64,000 nt of DNA from Parcubacteria group bacterium Gr01-1014_8 (GCA_007376385.1 VMGC01000004.1:1-64000), one strand, 5' to 3'; positions 1 through 35,101 are shown, counted from the first letter of the stretch. Notes: generated from the sequence alone by a model not told the origin. Made by a program: numbers and translations.

Positions 1-312
1 CGCCATGCCCGAGCGGATAGAATTGTCGCCCCGCCACCTGCCCGAATACTTGGAGGGCAGAACACCAAAGAAAAATGTCCTTTCCTTTTTAGAAGAAATC
101 GGTCGCGCGCAAATCCGAAAAGCAAGGAACATTTTTCTTTGGTGTCCGCCGAGTCCGCGAGGCGGTGGCGGGGCGTCATCATTCGTGGGGGTTCTCCGCA
201 AAATGGGTTCTAACTTTTTTAAACAAACACCACAAAATTTGATTTGACCATTCGCGCGCTCGAGGCGGGTGATCTGTTTACTCTTTTTTACAGAACGTTG
301 TAAACTTGGCAT

Positions 313-2438: not shown

Positions 2439-3077
2439 CTAGGGAAGGGGAGGCAGCTGATCCTTCCACTTCGCATAAAATTCTTCTTTGGAGATCTTGT
2501 ATACGTACTCATCGTACGCCACTCCATCTACCACGCGGGCTGCATTGTGTTTTTCGATCAGCGTATATCCGACGTGTTCAAGCAGTTTCTGACTCGCGAC
2601 GTTCGGGTCTATGGAATGTCCAAGAACCCAATTAATGCCCAATTTTGAGAACCCATAATGCAGTTGTAGGATCCGAGCTTCGGAGGCGATCCCTTTTTTC
2701 CAATACGCTTTGTCTCCGATAACGGCACCTCCGTTCGCACCGCCAGTCGCAGGGTCTATATCGCGGAAACTTACGACACCGATAAACTTGAATTTATCTC
2801 CGTTTTCTTTGGCGAAAACGCTAAAGACCTTCGCGGTCACGTCGTGTGCAGAACGCTGAAGCCAAGCTTTTTGATGTTCAAGTGTTACTGGCGGGCGCGT
2901 TCGCAAATAGCGGTTAACTTCTGGGTCATTCAAATATGTCACATGCGAAGGAAGGAGGCGTTCTTCCATTTCGCAAAGAGCTGTCCGCTGGCCTTCAGCC
3001 AGGATGTTCAATCCAGAGCGACTTTCAAAAGTGCTTTCCTGCGGCGTATTTTCGGGTTCTGGATTTTCAGCTGACAT
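2439..3077 (-). CDS. GNAT family N-acetyltransferase (RimJ/RimL-like)
   Basis: YLNDPEVNRYL...PVTLEHQKAWL matches the N-terminal signature of the RimL/Acetyltransf_3 class; 212 aa. Confidence 0.6.
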   Translation of the reverse strand: MSAENPEPENTPQESTFESRSGLNILAEGQRTALCEMEERLLPSHVTYLNDPEVNRYLRTRPPVTLEHQKAWLQRSAHDVTAKVFSVFAKENGDKFKFIGVVSFRDIDPATGGANGGAVIGDKAYWKKGIASEARILQLHYGFSKLGINWVLGHSIDPNVASQKLLEHVGYTLIEKHNAARVVDGVAYDEYVYKISKEEFYAKWKDQLPPLP

Positions 3078-10836: not shown

Positions 10837-12057
10837 TTAATCTTGGATGCCGTCACCAACCTCGTTGTTCAGAATGTTGCAGGTGAGATTGTCGCTCGGG
10901 TTCAAGGTGAATGGGGATGACGTACCGACGTTGACGCTGTTCGTGCAAGCGCCGCTGAATGTCACGGTGAAAGTCTTTCCGCCGACATTACCTGTTACCT
11001 GCTCATACGCGGTATACGAACCGCTCGGCAGGCCTGGCACCGGCACTTCGTCGGTCACTACCTGGTCGCCACCCGGGCCGACTATGTGCAGCGTGAAGTC
11101 GGCAACTTCGATACCTACTGTTGAAACGAGGAGTGCCTTGTTGACGGTAAGAGTACCGGTTGTCACCTCCGGTGGATTGCAGAGGAAGCCTTCATTGTGT
11201 CGCGCTTGTTCTGCTCTGAATGCAAGCGTGAGTTCAGCCATGTCAGTTTGCGTCTCGTTGCCAAGCGCGGTTCCGTCACAAAGTACGCTGTTAGGTCGTA
11301 CTTGCGGGCCTGTATCAGCGTCATCAGGCAAGCCAGGGGTCGTCAAGGTTCCAAAGCACCACGCTTTCGCGATATAGACGGTCTCATTTGCGGGAAGCGG
11401 CGAGTCTCCTCCCCACGCGTTTCCATTTGAGTCGGCAAGGGTGATGGAGAAGGCGCCGGTCGTCGTAGCAAGGTCAGTGAGTGTCTTTACGCCTCCCGAG
11501 AGGCCTTGTTCGCCAGTTTCGTACACGTTGTCACCGTCGTCAGCCCACCAGAAGAATTGGAGTGCATCTGCAAGCTCACCGTCCCACGCATCAAGCGGGT
11601 TTTCCTGCGCATCCACCTGGCCTTCAGGCTCAGTGGTCGAGACATCGTCATCCGATGTAAGCGTCAAGTCCATACATGCCCACGCATCGTTCTGAACGTG
11701 AATAGAGATGGTGTCCTCGCCCTCATCATCCGGCTTCAAGTCAGTGAAGTTGAAAAAGAGAAGACCGTCGTCGAGGTCCGAAAGAGGGAAGCTCGTGTCG
11801 CACGGCGAGCCTGGGAGTGGGAACGGAAACTGCCCCTGCCAATAGAATCCCGGCGTCGTCGTCGCTTGCTCGCCAAGGAATGTGCAGCGATTCCCATTGT
11901 AATAACTGTCATTATCAATCTTCAAATCAATCGCTCCCGCAGCAAACGTGTTGCCAGTGGACGTCTCTGTGTCGGAAAAGAACGCGCCGGTCATTCCCGC
12001 TCCTATCGCAGCCGCCGCTCCCGCGACAACGATGAGCCCAAATATGATTCGTGGCAT
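10837..12057 (-). CDS. TasA/camelysin-like SipW-dependent secreted protein, paralog 3 (406 aa)
   Basis: N-terminus MPRIIFGLIVVAGAAAAIGAGMTGAFFSDTETSTGNTFAAGAIDLKID matches the SipW-cognate class signal region (AFFSDTETSxGN). Conserved C-terminal CDGTALGNETQTD...FRAEQARHN...FLC. Confidence 0.7.
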   Translation of the reverse strand: MPRIIFGLIVVAGAAAAIGAGMTGAFFSDTETSTGNTFAAGAIDLKIDNDSYYNGNRCTFLGEQATTTPGFYWQGQFPFPLPGSPCDTSFPLSDLDDGLLFFNFTDLKPDDEGEDTISIHVQNDAWACMDLTLTSDDDVSTTEPEGQVDAQENPLDAWDGELADALQFFWWADDGDNVYETGEQGLSGGVKTLTDLATTTGAFSITLADSNGNAWGGDSPLPANETVYIAKAWCFGTLTTPGLPDDADTGPQVRPNSVLCDGTALGNETQTDMAELTLAFRAEQARHNEGFLCNPPEVTTGTLTVNKALLVSTVGIEVADFTLHIVGPGGDQVVTDEVPVPGLPSGSYTAYEQVTGNVGGKTFTVTFSGACTNSVNVGTSSPFTLNPSDNLTCNILNNEVGDGIQD

Positions 12058-12220: not shown

Positions 12221-13513
12221 CTAAGTTGGATCTGGCGGCGGCGCATCTCCCGGATCGCACAGAAAATTCGGATTATGCCGCACTTGTTCCGCGCGGAACA
12301 CGATGTCGGCGGTCAACGAATCCGTCTGCGCTTCGTTACCCATCGTGCTGCCATCGCACGTGATAACGCCCGTCAGACCGTCAACAATTTGCACTCCTGC
12401 GCACCACGCAGAGCCGATGTACTCTGTCGTACTCGCAACGAGTGCGCCATTTCCTGTCGTAGAGTCGTGAAGCGGGAGCGTAATGCCGTTCCCGAAGAGT
12501 CCTGATGAGAGAGACGTCTCCGTCGGCGGTTCATACACGCCGTCTCCATCGTCATTCCACAGGAAGAGATTGAGATAGTTGCCAAGCTCTCCGAGCGGGC
12601 TGTTGTTCAAATCCACGAGACTCGCGGCGTTGCATTCCGCGTCCGGTACGAGCGCGTCTGATTCCGGTTCGGTGCAGGTGTTGTCGTCGTTCTCCACATT
12701 CGTGATGTCCATGCACGCCCAGCCGTCGTTGGTGCCGACATGCAAACTGAATACATCGCGCCCGTCGTCGCCCGGCTTTACGTCGGTGAAATTCCAGAAC
12801 GGCTCGCCCGTGAGATCAATGGGGTCAACAAAGATTCCATCGCCATCAACGACGAGTTTGAAGAGAAGCCCCGCGGGATTAAACGTTGGGTCGCCTCCGC
12901 CTCCACCAGGGTTCGTTACAACTGCGGTAAGTGTATTTGGGCCCTGCACGAAATCCGCCGCTGGTACGACGTACACGTCTTCTGCAGCAGAGGTGAAATT
13001 ACTTGCCGCAAATTCGCTACCGATCGCATTGCCGTTCAGAGAAACAGAATAGAAGTTATCCGCGGCAATGTAGAGCGTCGCGCCGACGATCGGCCCATTC
13101 ACGTTGAACGTCCGAGTGAACGTATTTGTCTGCGTAACGCTCGCGTCCGATGGGCCATCAGCAGCCCAGATCCAGAACGAGCCATCGTTCGCGCCATCAT
13201 TTGGTGGTCCCGCAACATGCCCGCCATCCAAATCCGCAGTCCACGACGGATGAATGAACGTAACCGCAACGGCATTTCCCGCGCCGTCGTCTCCTGTGAA
13301 TGTCGTTAGTGTGTCGCTCACGATGGTAAAGTCCTCGCCGTTTGGTTCGCCGTTGTACGTTGAAAGGGAATGGTCGATCTTGAGGTCAATCGAGCCGGCG
13401 GTGAAGATATTTCCCGCCGAAGTTTCGGTGTCAGAAAAGAAAGCACCCGTTGCTCCCGCTACTGCTCCGCCGATGAAGATGATCATACCGAGTCCCAGTA
13501 ATATTCGTCGCAT
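12221..13513 (-). CDS. TasA/camelysin-like SipW-dependent secreted protein, paralog 2 (430 aa)
   Basis: MRRILLGLGMIIFIGGAVAGATGAFFSDTETSAGNIFTAGSIDLKID; C-terminal CDGSTMGNEAQTD...FRAEQVRHN...FLC. Confidence 0.7.
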   Translation of the reverse strand: MRRILLGLGMIIFIGGAVAGATGAFFSDTETSAGNIFTAGSIDLKIDHSLSTYNGEPNGEDFTIVSDTLTTFTGDDGAGNAVAVTFIHPSWTADLDGGHVAGPPNDGANDGSFWIWAADGPSDASVTQTNTFTRTFNVNGPIVGATLYIAADNFYSVSLNGNAIGSEFAASNFTSAAEDVYVVPAADFVQGPNTLTAVVTNPGGGGGDPTFNPAGLLFKLVVDGDGIFVDPIDLTGEPFWNFTDVKPGDDGRDVFSLHVGTNDGWACMDITNVENDDNTCTEPESDALVPDAECNAASLVDLNNSPLGELGNYLNLFLWNDDGDGVYEPPTETSLSSGLFGNGITLPLHDSTTGNGALVASTTEYIGSAWCAGVQIVDGLTGVITCDGSTMGNEAQTDSLTADIVFRAEQVRHNPNFLCDPGDAPPPDPT

Positions 13514-13696: not shown

Positions 13697-14596
13697 CTAG
13701 GAAGCTGGTACAGGTGTTACCCAAGATGGAACGTAGTCTGTCTCACACTGGAAGTCAGCGTTATTTCGAGATTGCTCCGCATAGAACTCGAGATCGCCAA
13801 TGACTCTGTCAGTTTGAGCTGCGTTATCAACTCCTGTTCCGTCGCAGTTCCAACCGGTTCCGAGGGTAGTCGGATTACCCGTGTTGACGCCATCTTGGAC
13901 GAGGGCATCGGGCGTCATTGCACCGAAGCACCAAGCCTTACCGATGTAGTTCGTTGATCCGCCAGGAACCCCGGCGCTACCGAAGGGACCTCCGGAAGCG
14001 TCAGAAAGAGCGATTTGACCTTGTGAGTCCAATCCGCTGATTGGACCGCTCAAAAAGACGGTTTCTGGTGATCCGCCTGTGCCTGCGACTGGCTCGAAGA
14101 CGTTGTCTCCGTCGTCCACCCAGAACGCGAAGTTGACTTGCTCGTCCAACTCACCGAGACCTGGACCCGGCTCTGCACAATTTGCGTCATCATCACCTTC
14201 CGGTTCCGTACAGGTATTATCTTCGTCTGTTGTTACTTGCGCCGCTGCGCACAGCCAAGCGTTGTTGCTACCGACGTGAATGGAGATTGTGTCCTCACCA
14301 AGGTCTCCCGGTTTCAGATCAATGAAATCGAAGAACTTCTCAATAGTTAGGTCAGTTAAATCCCACGAGGTGGCAGCCCACGCGACCATATTGTCGGGGC
14401 CTGATCCTTGTGTAGAAGTAGCGGTGATGTAGCTGTCATTATCGATCTGTAAATCAATATCTCCCGCCGCAAACGTGTTGCCAGTAGATGTTTCTGTGTC
14501 GTTGAAAAAAGCGCCCGTGGCTCCCGCCGCGACCGCCCCCACAAACACGATCATCCCCAAACTTATGAGAATTCTTTGTACTGATAGTAATTGCAT
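13697..14596 (-). CDS. TasA/camelysin-like SipW-dependent secreted protein, paralog 1 (299 aa; first gene of the cluster)
   Basis: MQLLSVQRILISLGMIVFVGAVAAGATGAFFNDTETSTGNTFAAGDIDLQID; C-terminal CDGTGVDNAAQTD...FYAEQSRNN...FQC. Confidence 0.7.
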   Translation of the reverse strand: MQLLSVQRILISLGMIVFVGAVAAGATGAFFNDTETSTGNTFAAGDIDLQIDNDSYITATSTQGSGPDNMVAWAATSWDLTDLTIEKFFDFIDLKPGDLGEDTISIHVGSNNAWLCAAAQVTTDEDNTCTEPEGDDDANCAEPGPGLGELDEQVNFAFWVDDGDNVFEPVAGTGGSPETVFLSGPISGLDSQGQIALSDASGGPFGSAGVPGGSTNYIGKAWCFGAMTPDALVQDGVNTGNPTTLGTGWNCDGTGVDNAAQTDRVIGDLEFYAEQSRNNADFQCETDYVPSWVTPVPAS

Positions 14597-30982: not shown

Positions 30983-31600
30983 TTACAATGAGAAAAGAGG
31001 GGAGTTCTCCTCGTTTTGTGTATGCTCGCTTTCTCTATGCGCTTTCCATTCGTCCAGATATTCATCAAATACCTTCTTGTGAGCGGTCGACACAAACTCG
31101 TAACCATTTTTGTGCGCGAATTGGATCACACTTGGCCGAGAGGACGAAAATTCAATGACAGTGGGCGTACGCGGGTCGTGTATGCACAAAGCGGCAATAA
31201 AGTCCTCCGCAGTCCGCAACGCGTAGGAGCCTATGCCTTGACCGCGAATGCTCTCATTGCTGCCCCTCTTCTTCTCCCTTACAAAACTGTGTTCTCTCCT
31301 CCATATTCTGCCCGAGCGCTGGTCGGGACCGGCGATAAACTGGAATGCCGCGATATTTTGTTTCTCATGGTCAAGCAAAACAGTTATTTCCGAGGGCTCC
31401 TTGCTATGCATGTAGCTGTACATCCAGGTACATGTCACCGTCTGCTTAGGAAATCCAGGCGCATCAATTCTCTTATCGATAGATACAAGACCAAATTTCT
31501 TTCTGTTTGCTTGCGCCATTAGTTGCAAGAATTCCCCATGAGAGAGGCTCGCGGATAGCTCAGGCGGATGTTCAGGAAGGATACCTCGCGGCTCGCTCAT
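30983..31600 (-). CDS. GNAT-like acetyltransferase domain protein
   Basis: IRGQGIGSYALRTAEDFIAA resembles GNAT motif A (Q/R-x-x-G-x-G/A). Low confidence on function. Confidence 0.4.
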   Translation of the reverse strand: MSEPRGILPEHPPELSASLSHGEFLQLMAQANRKKFGLVSIDKRIDAPGFPKQTVTCTWMYSYMHSKEPSEITVLLDHEKQNIAAFQFIAGPDQRSGRIWRREHSFVREKKRGSNESIRGQGIGSYALRTAEDFIAALCIHDPRTPTVIEFSSSRPSVIQFAHKNGYEFVSTAHKKVFDEYLDEWKAHRESEHTQNEENSPLFSL

Positions 31601-31898
31601 GACAAAAGTCTACCATTTGGAACATTACACGTGGGACTTAGTTTATTGGTTGAAATCGAAAATCAATGACCCTACGGGGACCGCGAGTACACTATCGGTC
31701 ACAAGTAATTTGCTTCGCAAACTCTCGCGACTCCGACTTGGCGGCCCAAAGGGTCCCCGCCTCCGTCTTTCGATTCCCGCTCGGGGCCCGACTAACGCCT
31801 AAAAACCCGACGGCATGCGGCGCGTGCGCTGTCAGTCAGGATTCTGGCTGAAATGAGTTCGAGCAATGTCGTACAGAGTCAAGAGTTTAGAACTTAAA

Positions 31899-31997
31899 TC
31901 GAAATCCCCGTGGGATTCTTTGTTGGCGGGCAAAGAAAACCACGGGGATTTCGGGGTGCCGCACGCCAAGCGCGCGTCCAAATGCAGGTTCGAGCCG
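31899..31997. repeat. inverted repeat, left copy (IR-L)
   Basis: See the mobile-element call. Also forms a local hairpin cgaaatccccgtgg...ccacggggatttcg. Confidence 0.55.
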
Positions 31998-32099
31998 AAG
32001 ATTTTTTGGAGGGGAATGCAAATGCAAAATCCACTAAGGAGTGCATTGCCCCGCCCGCCCTTGCGCGCACAGGATTATTCTTCGCTTTGCGAAGCTCCC

Positions 32100-32810
32100 T
32101 TAAACTCCCAAATCCTTTTTCTTTTCTTCAAATTCGCTCTTATCAATTTCGCCTTTGGCGTATCGCTCCTTCAATATATCGAATGCTGATTTTCCTTGCA
32201 CATCATTACCGTGACTGTGCCCTCCCATATGACCTGCTCCAAAATTCCCCCTTATCATGGAGACAATCATCCAGATTACGAAACCCCAAAAGAGAACCAT
32301 AAAGATCCAGCCAAACCCACCAAAAGGCATTAATCCAAAATTCATCATAGAATTATTTGATTGATTAGTATTAAGAGGAGACGACCATCCTCCCCACATC
32401 ATGTTCATCATCGGCATCCAGCCGCCGCTGATTGCGGGGAACGCCGCCGAGGTGTCGCAACCGGAAAGCCGTTTACCCATGACAATATGGATCTGCTCCT
32501 CACCATCCGCGCCGTGCGCTTGAATCATCATGGCGTTCATGGCGGCGTGAGAATCACCAGCCATTTGACCCATAAAGTATTCACCAAGCACTCCATACTG
32601 CTCATTGTTTAGATCAGCACAGGCGACCTCTTTTGCTTGCAGCTTACTCCGTAGCTCTTTTCCTTCCTGCTCTTCACGGGCAGTGTGCTCGACGACGGCG
32701 TTCCAATCCGCAGCAGAATTGGAAAACCCACCCATCATTTGAGCATGTGCACTTTGAGCAAACGAACCGACGACAACTATAGAAAGAAAAGTTAAAATGA
32801 GTTTTTTCAT
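32100..32810 (-). CDS. secreted/membrane Met- and His-rich protein with C-terminal SHOCT domain
   Basis: Signal peptide MKKLILTFLSIVVVGSFAQSAHA. Met-rich tracts (MMNMMWGGW, MPMMNMM) and HMGGHSHG. Two TM helices, then SAFDILKERYAKGEIDKSEFEEKKKDL, a typical SHOCT motif. Confidence 0.55.
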   Translation of the reverse strand: MKKLILTFLSIVVVGSFAQSAHAQMMGGFSNSAADWNAVVEHTAREEQEGKELRSKLQAKEVACADLNNEQYGVLGEYFMGQMAGDSHAAMNAMMIQAHGADGEEQIHIVMGKRLSGCDTSAAFPAISGGWMPMMNMMWGGWSSPLNTNQSNNSMMNFGLMPFGGFGWIFMVLFWGFVIWMIVSMIRGNFGAGHMGGHSHGNDVQGKSAFDILKERYAKGEIDKSEFEEKKKDLGV

Positions 32811-32822
32811 AGTTTTTTTAAT

Positions 32823-33170
32823 TTAACCAAATACTAACACCTTGTCCGAACTCTCGACCATATTGAGTAAGTCGGACATGGTGGAAATAGGACACATGGC
32901 GGTCTCTTTTTTGCCGCGAATTTCCAAGCAAGTACCGCATGCAAAGATTGTTCCTTTCAGTTCTTTATATTCTGCAATTCTCTTTGAAATATCAAAATGT
33001 TCGCCATCAGGAATAGAATCCAATTCCGAACCCTCATTCATCAAGAAAATCTCAACGTGGTGATTAGCTTTGAGTGCGGCGATACCGAGGCGGAACGTGT
33101 TCCATACGTGTTCGGGTTTATTGGATTGTAGGATGATGCCGAGCTTCATAGAGAGTATCTTCGTATCCAT
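32823..33170 (-). CDS. DsrE/DsrF-like family protein
   Basis: 115 aa with KLGIILQSNKPEHVWNTFRLGIAALKANHHVEIFLMNEG and a conserved Cys (FACGTC), consistent with the DsrE/DsrF/YchN-like fold. Confidence 0.5.
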   Translation of the reverse strand: MDTKILSMKLGIILQSNKPEHVWNTFRLGIAALKANHHVEIFLMNEGSELDSIPDGEHFDISKRIAEYKELKGTIFACGTCLEIRGKKETAMCPISTMSDLLNMVESSDKVLVFG

Positions 33171-33186
33171 TGATATAATACTTCAT

Positions 33187-34740
33187 ATGCGCTATTTCCT
33201 CTACGCCCGCAAAAGTACGGATGTCGAAGACAAACAGGTGATGTCCATCGAAGGACAGCTCGTTGAACTGCGGGCATTGGCTAAACGTGATGGATTAGAA
33301 ATTGCAGAAGAATTCATTGAAAAGCGAAGCGCGAAGATTCCAGGCCGCCCTGTATTTGAGGACATGTTAAAGCGGATCGAGAAAGACGAAGCGCACGGAA
33401 TTATCTGCTGGAAAATTGATCGTCTTTCACGCAATCCGGTTGATAGCGGGAGAATTAGTTGGCTACTTCAACAGAACATAATCCAGAAGATCGTAACGCA
33501 TGACAAGATATATCTTCCTCACGACAACGTACTCCTCATGTCTGTGGAATTCGGCATGGCGAATCAGTACATCCGAGACTTGAGTGTCAACGTGAAGCGC
33601 GGCCTCCGGCAAAAGGCACGACAAGGCGTATATCCAAGTACCGCGCCCTTGGGCTACCGCAACGACCCGTACACCAAGACCATCGTCGTGGATCGGCGCA
33701 AAGCGCCGCTCGTGCGTAAGGCATTTGAACTCTACGCAAAGAACGGCTCGCGGCTCGAAGACATTGCGCAGTTTCTTTTCGAGCACGGCATCAAGACGGG
33801 AGCGACGCGCGGATGGAGCAAGGGCGGCGGCAGGCCGCTCAAAAAAGACCAGATAACATTCCTGCTCTCTAATCCGTTTTACTTCGGCCACTTCGCCTAC
33901 AGCGGCGAGATGTACGAGGGCACGCATACGCCCATCGTGAGCAAGGAGCTTTTTGACGCGGTGCAAAAAGTCCTCGCGCTTCGCAGTCGTGCGCACCACA
34001 AAGTGGCGAACGAGCCGCAAGCGTATTGCGGCCTTTTGCATTGTGGCGAGTGCGGCTTTTCCATCACCGCCGAGGAGAAATCGAAGCGACAGAAGAACGG
34101 CAACGTACATCGCTACATTTACTATCGCTGTACGAAAAAGAAAGCCGCCGTTCATTGCTCACAGCCGTATGTGCGGGAAGAAGCGCTCGACTCGCAACTC
34201 TCCGGCTTGCTCGCAAAGTTTGTCATGCCCGCGCATTGGGCGAAGGAATTAGACGCAATGGCCGAGCGAGATGCGGCAAGCGCCTCTCAAACCACGGCGG
34301 CGTCCGTCCAAGCGATGCGGGCAAAGATTGCCGAGTTAGACGGCAAAATCGCCCGCATCACCGACCTCTTTGTCGAACAGGATATCGAGCGCGGCGACTA
34401 TCTCGAAAGGAAGCGCGCACTTATGTCCGAAAAGAAGTCGGTGCAGGAGCGAATCCTCCTGCTTGAACGGGACGCCGCCGTGTGGCTCGAACCGATGCAG
34501 AAGTGGATACAAGAGGCGCAAATGCTTGAAGAAATTGCGAAATCCAAAGACTACCCCTCCAAAAAATCCTCCCTCCAAAAAATCTTCGGCTCGAACCTCA
34601 CTCTCCACGCGCGCGAAGCGCGCGGCGTGCCGCAAAATCAGTGGTTTTCTTTGCTCACTGCCAAAGAAAACCACTCCGAAAATAACCTCGTTCCGATACT
34701 TGTGACCTCACGGGGAATCGAACCCCGGTTCCATCCTTGA
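33187..34740 (+). CDS. large serine recombinase (resolvase/invertase-type catalytic domain plus recombinase and zinc-ribbon domains)
   Basis: MRYFLYARKSTDVEDKQVMSIEGQ (catalytic Ser region), GIICWKIDRLSRN, recombinase-domain motifs, the CGLLHCGECG zinc ribbon and a C-terminal coiled coil. The 3' end is encoded by IR-R and runs into the antisense of tRNA-Glu. Confidence 0.8.
   Translation: MRYFLYARKSTDVEDKQVMSIEGQLVELRALAKRDGLEIAEEFIEKRSAKIPGRPVFEDMLKRIEKDEAHGIICWKIDRLSRNPVDSGRISWLLQQNIIQKIVTHDKIYLPHDNVLLMSVEFGMANQYIRDLSVNVKRGLRQKARQGVYPSTAPLGYRNDPYTKTIVVDRRKAPLVRKAFELYAKNGSRLEDIAQFLFEHGIKTGATRGWSKGGGRPLKKDQITFLLSNPFYFGHFAYSGEMYEGTHTPIVSKELFDAVQKVLALRSRAHHKVANEPQAYCGLLHCGECGFSITAEEKSKRQKNGNVHRYIYYRCTKKKAAVHCSQPYVREEALDSQLSGLLAKFVMPAHWAKELDAMAERDAASASQTTAASVQAMRAKIAELDGKIARITDLFVEQDIERGDYLERKRALMSEKKSVQERILLLERDAAVWLEPMQKWIQEAQMLEEIAKSKDYPSKKSSLQKIFGSNLTLHAREARGVPQNQWFSLLTAKENHSENNLVPILVTSRGIEPRFHP
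34571..34685. repeat. inverted repeat, right copy (IR-R), inside the recombinase 3' coding region
   Basis: See the mobile-element call. Local hairpin agtggttttctttg...caaagaaaaccact. Confidence 0.55.
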
Positions 34741-34774
34741 GAAGGATGTGTCCTAGCCGCTAGACGATGAGGCC
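34703..34774 (-). tRNA. tRNA-Glu (anticodon CUC), 72 nt, no encoded CCA
   Basis: The reverse complement folds as acceptor GGCCTCA/TGAGGTC, D-arm GTCT-AGCGGCTA-GGAC, anticodon stem CATCC/GGATG with loop TTCTCAA (anticodon CTC), 4-nt variable loop, T-arm CGGGG-TTCGATT-CCCCG, discriminator A. Confidence 0.8.
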
Positions 34775-34944
34775 GTCACGGCGAGTATAGAATATACTTG
34801 GTTCGATTCCAAGGGACTTACAGCTTCAAACATCATACGGGGAATCGGTCACGCATAATTTTCGAGTGAAAATTTGCGCGACCCCACCTCACTCGCCCTC
34901 GCTCGTTCCGGTCTTGCGGCGCTACGCTCACTCGCGCCTCACCC

Positions 34945-35010
34945 CGCTCCATCCTTGAGATACTGGTATAAAGATGTGAATCAGTTTGTCCTAGCCGATA
35001 GCCTGCCCGG
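34945..35010 (-). pseudogene. degenerate tRNA-Glu-derived fragment (D-arm and anticodon-arm region with two insertions)
   Basis: ccatccttgaga and gatgtg...gtcctagccgatag match the tRNA-Glu gene at 34729-34765 but are interrupted by 11-nt and 9-nt insertions; no acceptor or T arm. Confidence 0.35.
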
Positions 35011-35101
35011 CCAGGGACGATAGGGCGTTCGAATGTCAAAAATAGCGATTTCGGCAACGACAAGCATGAGATGTTTCTCATTAACGTGCTACAGTTTTTG
35101 T

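Follow-up and report, generated by a model that had tools for sequence, protein, structure and literature searches.

A 64,000-nt stretch of DNA from Parcubacteria group bacterium Gr01-1014_8 (GCA_007376385.1 VMGC01000004.1:1-64000), hereafter called the window, contains at positions 31899-34774 a compact block with a gene for a large serine recombinase (LSR), two cargo genes and a long inverted repeat (IR), which abuts a tRNA-Glu gene. In this work, the block was compared with related loci from other genomes and from metagenomes. We propose, with a probability of about 0.6, that it represents the tRNA-proximal part of an islet integrated site-specifically by an LSR, and that it belongs to a large, apparently undescribed family of such elements in Patescibacteria, which carry an inverted copy of their attachment site (attP). 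Two readings had been offered in the initial annotation of the block: a small integrative or transposable element that has landed next to a tRNA, and an invertible segment controlled by the recombinase.

The inverted repeat and the recombinase gene next to tRNA-Glu

The recombinase gene (33187..34740, plus strand) encodes a protein of 517 aa, which is 100% identical to P0001. Its Resolvase (PF00239, E = 1.3e-20), Recombinase (PF07508, E = 8.5e-17) and Zn_ribbon_recom (PF13408, E = 4.7e-10) domains follow each other in this order, and the R8/S10 motif YARKST is unchanged in 30 relatives. The tRNA-Glu(CTC) gene (34702..34774, minus strand) is intact as predicted by ARAGORN and has an Rfam score of 58.1 bits. 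As previously annotated, the recombinase open reading frame (ORF) reads into the antisense strand of this tRNA; counting the stop codon, the overlap is 39 nt rather than 38 nt and comprises the last 12 sense codons and the stop.

The left (IR-L) and right (IR-R) arms had been described as imperfect reverse complements with a hairpin inside each, and both properties are real. The arms, 31910-32013 and 34571-34674, are 104 nt long each, 76% complementary and separated by 2557 nt; this is the longest IR of the window, with a runner-up of 50 nt. The exact core shared by the two arms (AGGTTCGAGCCGAAGATTTTTTGGAGGG) was present as annotated, with a length of 28 nt instead of 27 nt; it is the stretch kept family-wide, which codes for ..LQKIFGSNL.., and the previously assigned end of IR-L (31997) falls within it. 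Based on homology to relatives, the outer ends are located at 31880/31882 on the left and at 34701/34703 on the right. The palindrome in IR-L spans 54 nt (31900..31953) with stems of 23 nt (31900-31922/31931-31953, 91%), and that in IR-R spans 36 nt (34640..34675) with stems of 14 nt (34640-34653/34662-34675, 100%), 26 nt downstream of the tRNA 3' end.

Recombinase relatives share the tRNA overlap and the inverted copy

Homologues of the recombinase (E <= 1e-20) form 5157 protein clusters, almost all of them from Patescibacteria, with at least 576 matches in species-representative genomes. For comparative analysis, 80 genome loci were fetched, with recombinases 48-91% identical to that of the window. 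The recombinase ORF overlaps the antisense strand of a tRNA 3' end in 51 of these 80 loci, involving 13 tRNA types (Glu, Gln, Leu, Ile, Val, Tyr, Ser, Asn, Ala, Gly, Arg, Thr and Lys), and the sequence 'GIEP/GLEP' seen at the recombinase C-termini in the protein alignment is the antisense T-loop.

In 57/84 sources, nearly all of those with enough upstream sequence, the final ~40-55 codons of the recombinase gene recur in inverted orientation upstream of it. This copy sits 0.13-9 kb away, mostly measures 110-180 nt and shares 84-100% identity with the end of its own recombinase. Minimal versions consist of IR-L, recombinase and IR-R alone, with ~1.5 kb between the arms (L007, L009, L010, L034). 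The cargo differs among close relatives: recombinases 85-91% identical to that of the window reside in different contexts with different cargo. In relatives, a segment lying outside the IR carries a BglI/SfiI-type restriction-modification (R-M) system and a TraG/VirD4-like protein, as well as M23 and trypsin-like peptidases and a methylase with a helicase. The members of this family are probably small, mobile genomic islands.

Junction anatomy and shared cores

The anatomy of the junctions, the shared cores and the two types of recombinase tail are direct observations on these loci. The identity between the two copies of the recombinase end (the I arm) breaks off abruptly at ..TGGTGA(C), the reverse complement of the (G)TCACCA with which the tRNA ends. 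Past this junction, the right copy continues into the tRNA and the left copy into a conserved arm, designated X (nnTCTATACn6GCTCGAACCTATTTT), which is followed by a stop codon and GC-rich hairpins. The right copy runs into the T-loop motif in 43 loci, and in nearly all of those the left copy runs into the X consensus; the X motif was detected on at least 120 metagenome contigs.

Several loci possess a second IR pair formed by the X-plus-hairpin region, 148-255 nt long and 90-100% identical, which encloses a further 2-7 kb. Three junctions are readable in such loci: a|X, an inverted I|X, and I|tRNA, where the 'a' arms contain hairpins, as expected of a native tRNA trailer/terminator. R-M systems and a TraG-like protein are among the cargo located between a|X and the internal module. 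Common cores of 2-6 nt for a|X, I|X and I|tRNA were identified in L007, L009, L037, L053, L060 and L090. The cores shared in five genome loci are TGGTGA, GTGA, GTG, GGTAC and GTG, and in L090 the common core is CA alone, corresponding to C72-A73 of the tRNA. The core varies by tRNA type, being CA for many and AG for Gln and Asn, with TA and others also seen, which fits a dinucleotide that has to match between the recombining partners. On the basis of these alignments, a|X, I|X and I|tRNA are read as putative attL, an internal copy of attP and attR, respectively, with a predicted crossover at tRNA positions 72/73.

The corresponding features can be delineated in the window. The I arm of the putative attR (IR-R, 34571..34701, plus strand) covers recombinase codons ~462-505, would serve as a new tRNA 3' trailer and is near-identical to the I arm of L002. 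The crossover dinucleotide is predicted at 34702..34703, where TG corresponds to A73 and C72 of the tRNA on the minus strand and where the identity between I|tRNA and I|X of close relatives ends. On the left, IR-L (31882..32013) is an inverted copy of a recombinase 3' end devoid of the recombinase body and of a sister lineage. The dinucleotide of its internal attP-like site is predicted at 31880..31881 (CA on the plus strand) from alignment with the junctions of L207 and L002 and with the cores of 2-6 nt common to the three junctions of relatives. The adjoining X arm (31832..31879, minus strand), the partner arm of this site, codes for the alternative tail TLYDIARTHFSQNPD and a stop codon. It is the sole match in the window to TATACN6GCTCGAACCTATTT, with 3 mismatches and 0.01 matches expected by chance, and is in frame with the IR-L copy. 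Beyond the X-tail stop, a structured spacer with GC-rich hairpins (31600..31831, minus strand; left boundary approximate) corresponds in position to the 'X-GC' module of relatives, that is, to the conserved post-X hairpins of L002, L084, L011, L007 and others. A search of the repeats and the X-GC region against Rfam returned tRNAs and no other known RNA.

Several loci depart from this pattern. In L045 and L038, a T-arm and an acceptor end are clearly recognizable past the junction, but this sequence received no call from ARAGORN or from Rfam at the gathering threshold; it may be an intron-containing or unusual tRNA. The recombinase of L082 (86% identical to that of the window) ends with ..VVTS-stop, and its I arm (2920-3000) is joined to CAGTTAGGGTGGCTTT.., which is neither tRNA nor X, beside primase-like and SocA_Panacea genes; this junction may represent another type of partner, in addition to tRNA and X, or may reflect a deletion.

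The X arm encodes an alternative recombinase tail

Read in the frame of the I arm, the X arm codes for ..L-Y-x-x-(A/V/I)-R-T-(Y/H)-F.. followed by a stop, 15-20 codons in total. Among 42 X arms, the Leu codon is CTN with a nearly random third position, Arg is encoded by CGA/AGA/CGT, Thr by ACC/ACT/ACG and Phe by TTT/TTC. This synonymous variation points to selection on the translated peptide, and the X tail is translated at some point of the life cycle. Full recombinases ending in the X tail were found in L002, whose enzyme is 91% identical to that of the window, and in L064, L135, L163 and L208; X-tailed full recombinases make up 10 of the best 120 protein clusters. The antisense-tRNA tails are arbitrary, varying from about 5 to well over 100 residues. 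The in-frame X arm and the existence of full-length X-tailed recombinases together suggest that attP lies inside the recombinase ORF and that integration would replace the native tail.

Proposed mechanism

In the free form of the element, the recombinase ORF would run through attP, in which a 2-nt core separates the I arm (~50 codons up to the core) from the X arm; on the X side, 15-20 further codons (..LYxxARTYF..) would be followed by a stop and hairpins. The enzyme would recombine attP (I|X) with the chromosomal site attB (a|tRNA) at tRNA positions 72/73. In the resulting attR (I|tRNA), the ORF would gain an arbitrary antisense-tRNA tail, while the element supplies N73/CCA and a new trailer to the tRNA; attL, at the far end, would join the native tRNA trailer to X. 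We infer a circular intermediate and a directionality of the reaction. Nearly all members carry, upstream of the recombinase, an inverted and bodiless copy of the whole putative attP end (I|X with hairpins), and pairing of this copy with the I arm of attR gives the long IR. In the window, IR-R would be the attR arm, and IR-L with the X arm would be an internal attP module taken from a sister lineage.

A number of points weigh against this reconstruction. Neither an empty attB nor a circular junction was recovered; in an empty-site search with the 390-aa protein of the right flank, the nearest orthologue (59% identical, L085) had the PfkB neighbour only and no tRNA-Glu, which makes it uninformative about the site. 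For the window element, no attL (a|X) or second X-GC copy was found by sensitive BLAST and a weighted motif scan of the window. Full attL-attP-attR sets occur in about 8 loci only, and contig joins are ambiguous at perfect repeats whose length exceeds the k of the assembler (e.g. L143, L156). The tRNA-joined recombinases outnumber the X-joined ones by ~10:1, an excess which the model leaves unexplained, and it offers no reason for the internal inverted copy of attP. TCGAAC sits 4 nt farther from the core in the X arm than in the tRNA arm. Serine integrases are characterized by an offset between the half-sites of attP and attB, which the 4-nt shift resembles; the likeness is an analogy with the general literature.

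Origin of the left module in the window

The window segment 31878-32013, which includes IR-L, the core and two bases of the X arm, is 91% identical over 136 nt to positions 2172-2307 of L207, the 3' end of the P0028 recombinase gene. Identity between IR-L and the IR-R of the window is only 76%, and the recombinase of the P0028/L207 lineage is 74% identical to that of the window at the DNA level. The window arms belong to two element lineages rather than to one drifted pair, and an origin of IR-L as a decayed self-duplicate of IR-R was rejected given its 91% identity to the recombinase end of another lineage. The left modules of L082 and L012 are likewise heterologous to the neighbouring recombinase. 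Since no attL is present in the window, the copy was regarded as mosaic; it is probably an immobile, degenerate example of the family, though its recombinase ORF is intact.

The inner flank of IR-L (32014..32099) is conserved and contains a G-rich 'K-box' (~32040-32070) and a hairpin past the stop codon of the adjacent SHOCT gene; over 31977-32100, a segment that includes this flank, the window shares 82% identity with positions 1-139 of L207. Similar K-boxes (GCGCGCACGGGTGGGCGGGGCAAGCAC-like) are located immediately inside the left repeat in L082, L084, L004, L014, L046, L051 and others. The K-box occurs in differing reading frames among lineages, which suggests that it acts at the DNA or RNA level and not as a coding sequence. 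An interpretation of IR-L with X as a mini-ORF or directionality factor was rejected, because there is no conserved start, the K-box frames differ and the FGSNL region has frameshifting indels.

Further details of the repeats were observed. The left repeat often has an insertion of 7-10 nt (e.g. TTGTATTTCT) that splits GCTCGAACC and puts the repeat out of frame with the recombinase copy (L004, L005, L007, L009, L014, L020, L082, L084). The 54-nt palindrome of IR-L matches L207 2232-2285 with 98% identity in plus/plus orientation, and the flanking arm matches in minus orientation, which corresponds to a hairpin 'flip/flop' event. At the inner edge of IR-R, a 16-nt direct repeat, CCCTCCAAAAAATCYT x2 (34555..34586, plus strand), is followed by GGCTCGAACC, a motif of the X arm and of the tRNA T-loop. 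The two units lie within recombinase codons in two frames (PSKKS / SLQKI) and are conserved as DNA in relatives, including distant ones; the tandem repeat may be a DNA-level site.

Alternative explanations

An invertible switch is an unlikely explanation for the block. Here, the segment from IR-L to IR-R would be flipped either by homologous recombination or by LSR-mediated exchange between I|X and I|tRNA, toggling the recombinase tail and reversing the cargo. Flipping is conceivable given that all four arm combinations exist among relatives: the recombinase I|tRNA with IR-L|X forms the majority, the recombinase I|X is found in L002, L064, L135, L163 and L208, and tRNA|IR-L, with the recombinase pointing away, in L039 and L061. 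However, these combinations were compared across contigs of different genomes, and none of the loci displayed both orientations. They are also expected if a circle with two inverted attP copies integrates through either of them, and there is a strong bias, with at least 43 tRNA-joined loci versus a handful of X-joined ones. The protein-level constraint on the X tail agrees with a switch, as does the length of the arms, often 97-100% identical, which exceeds the half-site need of a recombinase and suits homologous exchange or gene conversion. On the other hand, canonical serine integrases are not known to catalyze recombination between attP and attR. The two arms of the window are 76% identical and match at ~13/33 core-proximal positions, and inversion between such heterologous arms is unlikely. 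The C-terminus swap postulated in the initial annotation stands in so far as recombinases of relatives end in either a tRNA-antisense or an X tail; the exchanged part is the 15-20 codons past the repeat and not the peptide encoded by the repeat. Contig ends near the repeats were considered as a sign of population heterogeneity and rejected, because the overhangs do not exceed k-1 and the breaks are explained by the repeats themselves.

A related and equally tentative idea is that the internal module is a built-in toggle: integration would sever the X tail and terminator from the recombinase, which would stay fixed in a tRNA-fused form, and rare inversion over the long, identical arms, catalyzed by the enzyme or by RecA, would rejoin the gene with the stored X tail and re-arm the element.

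It is improbable, and more so than a switch, that IR-L with the X arm is a functionless relic, the leftover 3' end of a decayed second element in opposite orientation. The heterology between the left module and the neighbouring recombinase in the window, L082 and L012 would agree with such an origin, and the module codes for no conserved mini-ORF. However, it occurs in nearly every locus with enough upstream sequence (57/84 sources); its length is similar throughout, the K-box on its inner side is conserved, and it usually matches its own recombinase end at 84-100% identity, across recombinases that are only 50-90% identical to one another; random decay is not expected to leave the same piece each time.

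Finally, a compact insertion sequence- or transposon-like unit from IR-L to IR-R with terminal IRs as in Tn4451/Tn5397, inserting beside tRNAs, would accommodate the minimal versions, the 0 to 9 kb of cargo between the arms and the presence of the same recombinase type beside many different tRNAs, but it is very improbable and largely refuted by the junction anatomy, since IR-L is never joined directly to host DNA but always to the X arm, its inner edge shifts by tens of nt between lineages, it may derive from another lineage than the adjacent recombinase, and the core is tRNA N72-N73 and not GA. The integrative element of the initial annotation was of the right kind, an LSR islet at tRNA positions 72/73, with the wrong boundaries: the repeats are not transposon ends, IR-L is internal, and in complete relatives the a|X junction with the native tRNA trailer lies 2-7 kb beyond it.

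Comparison with known systems

The best matches of the recombinase among solved structures are SprA/YokA and A118 Int, with remote similarity (E about 1e-11, far below the NCBIfam cut-offs). Its best NCBIfam match is CcrB, with 110 bits versus a cut-off of 900 bits, and XisF is also distant. The enzyme is a generic LSR, remote from all of these proteins, and the logic of its reaction looks like that of a serine integrase. The three-domain architecture is common to the phage serine integrases (phiC31, Bxb1, A118/LI Int, SPbeta SprA), and the junctions would fit the scheme attP x attB -> attL + attR with a very short core and an att site beside the recombinase gene. Unlike in the phage systems, many different tRNAs are targeted, at their extreme 3' end, attP would lie within the recombinase ORF and a second, inverted copy of the putative attP is carried. 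No candidate gene for a directionality factor was found in the minimal elements. A prophage was rejected, as there were no relatives among IMG/VR contigs and no phage genes, and the cargo consists of R-M systems, peptidases, TraG-like proteins and small unknown genes.

Similar to the family described here, the SCCmec/SCC elements (CcrA/B/C) are small LSR-driven islands with variable cargo, which insert at the 3' end of a housekeeping gene and spare it; they differ in the target (rlmH versus tRNA), the repeat architecture and the phylum. In Tn4451/Tn5397, the LSR (TnpX, TndX) is likewise the sole mobility gene of a small element with an expected circular intermediate, and in elements of this type recombinase expression is coupled to the state of the junction. 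Here, in contrast, the crossover is not GA but the tRNA N72-N73 core, the ends are not the IRs, and the targeting of N72/N73 is strict. The Hin/Gin/Cin systems also possess IRs flanking a segment beside or containing a serine recombinase gene, and inversion can swap C-terminal ends. Those enzymes are ~190 aa long with a C-terminal helix-turn-helix, short hix-type sites and a Fis enhancer, whereas the enzyme described here is an LSR of 517 aa with recombinase and zinc-ribbon domains and repeats of 100-180 nt.

As in tRNA-targeting islands and tycheposons, modular cargo is located beside tRNA genes. An LSR was reported for a minority of tycheposons, 27/937 (bioRxiv 10.1101/2020.12.28.424599). 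The tRNA islands and tycheposons mostly use tyrosine recombinases and duplicate tens of nt of the tRNA 3' half, in contrast to the serine enzyme, the 2-6 nt shared and the recombinase ORF reading into the tRNA here. The repeat of at least 15 nt of tRNA that is classical for tyrosine-integrase islands is absent from the window. A repeat search detected no direct repeat of the tRNA 3' terminus on the distal side of the element in the window, in line with the initial annotation, which regarded classic tRNA-3' integration as unsupported.

Two more distant analogies can be mentioned. In the mycobacteriophages BPs and Brujita, attP is located within a gene and integration rewrites the C-terminus of the protein, and the yeast 2-micron circle (FLP/FRT) carries two inverted recombination sites; both employ tyrosine recombinases in unrelated hosts. 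We found no description of this system in the literature, nor counterparts for an attP in the recombinase ORF and for a stored inverted copy of it. The features that differ from the described systems known to us or found are the targeting of N72/N73 over many isoacceptors, the attP in the ORF, the replacement of the tail and the near-universal inverted attP.

Cargo genes and other features of the window

Two minus-strand cargo genes are located between the arms. The first (32100..32810) encodes a secreted or membrane Met- and His-rich protein with a C-terminal SHOCT domain (PF09851, E = 1.2e-8) and no match in NCBIfam, and the second (32823..33170) a small DsrE/DsrF-like protein (PF02635, E = 9e-10) with weak similarity to the C-terminal part of YedF. 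Both genes and the recombinase gene had been annotated correctly, as confirmed by Pfam; the metal/sulfur role assigned to the cargo is a guess from domain matches.

The intact tRNA-Glu is immediately preceded by the pieces of another tRNA-Glu(CTC)-like gene (34870-35030, minus strand). A D-arm, an anticodon arm and the 3' strand of the acceptor are visible in it, but it has insertions, lacks most of the T-arm and is not called by either ARAGORN or Rfam. At the left end of the window (1-260, minus strand), another X-type arm (~200-238; TTTGTTTAAAAAAGTTAGAACCCATTTT) codes for ..LFKKVRTHFAENPHE and a stop and is part of a different element; ..TTTTGTGGTG precedes it and nested long stems come after it. 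The arm with which it is joined does not resemble a recombinase end, and the arrangement looks like an attL end, from a further member of the family situated immediately to the left of the window. Three direct copies of 107 nt (11903-12009, 13362-13468 and 14430-14536; 64-79% identical) reside in neighbouring minus-strand ORFs, which are probably paralogous genes.

Implications for genome assembly and for Patescibacteria

Perfect terminal IRs of 141-1550 nt surround a recombinase or cargo segment in L143 (4651 nt; a 1550-nt palindromic contig), L156 (3257 nt), L056 and L063. These repeats are probably assembler artefacts and call for caution with metagenome-assembled genomes of the candidate phyla radiation (CPR) near tRNA genes; the palindromic L143 and L156 were not used as a free form with two attP sites, as they are possible assembly artefacts. 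The contig ends within k-1 of the repeat edge, together with the palindromic contigs, indicate that short-read joins across perfect repeats are unreliable. The IRs of 100-400 nt systematically break or mis-join short-read CPR assemblies beside tRNA genes.

If the proposed model is true, these elements constitute a very abundant family of mini-islands in Patescibacteria (CPR), where mobile elements are poorly known, and would shuttle genes for defence, secreted enzymes and redox/metal-type functions between genomes. Their target, the last base pair and the discriminator of tRNA genes, is present in every genome, and would be of interest in the search for serine integrases with generic landing sites. 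Should the toggle also be true, the recombinase would regulate itself by rewriting its own C-terminus, on an element that uses almost any tRNA with matching N72-N73.

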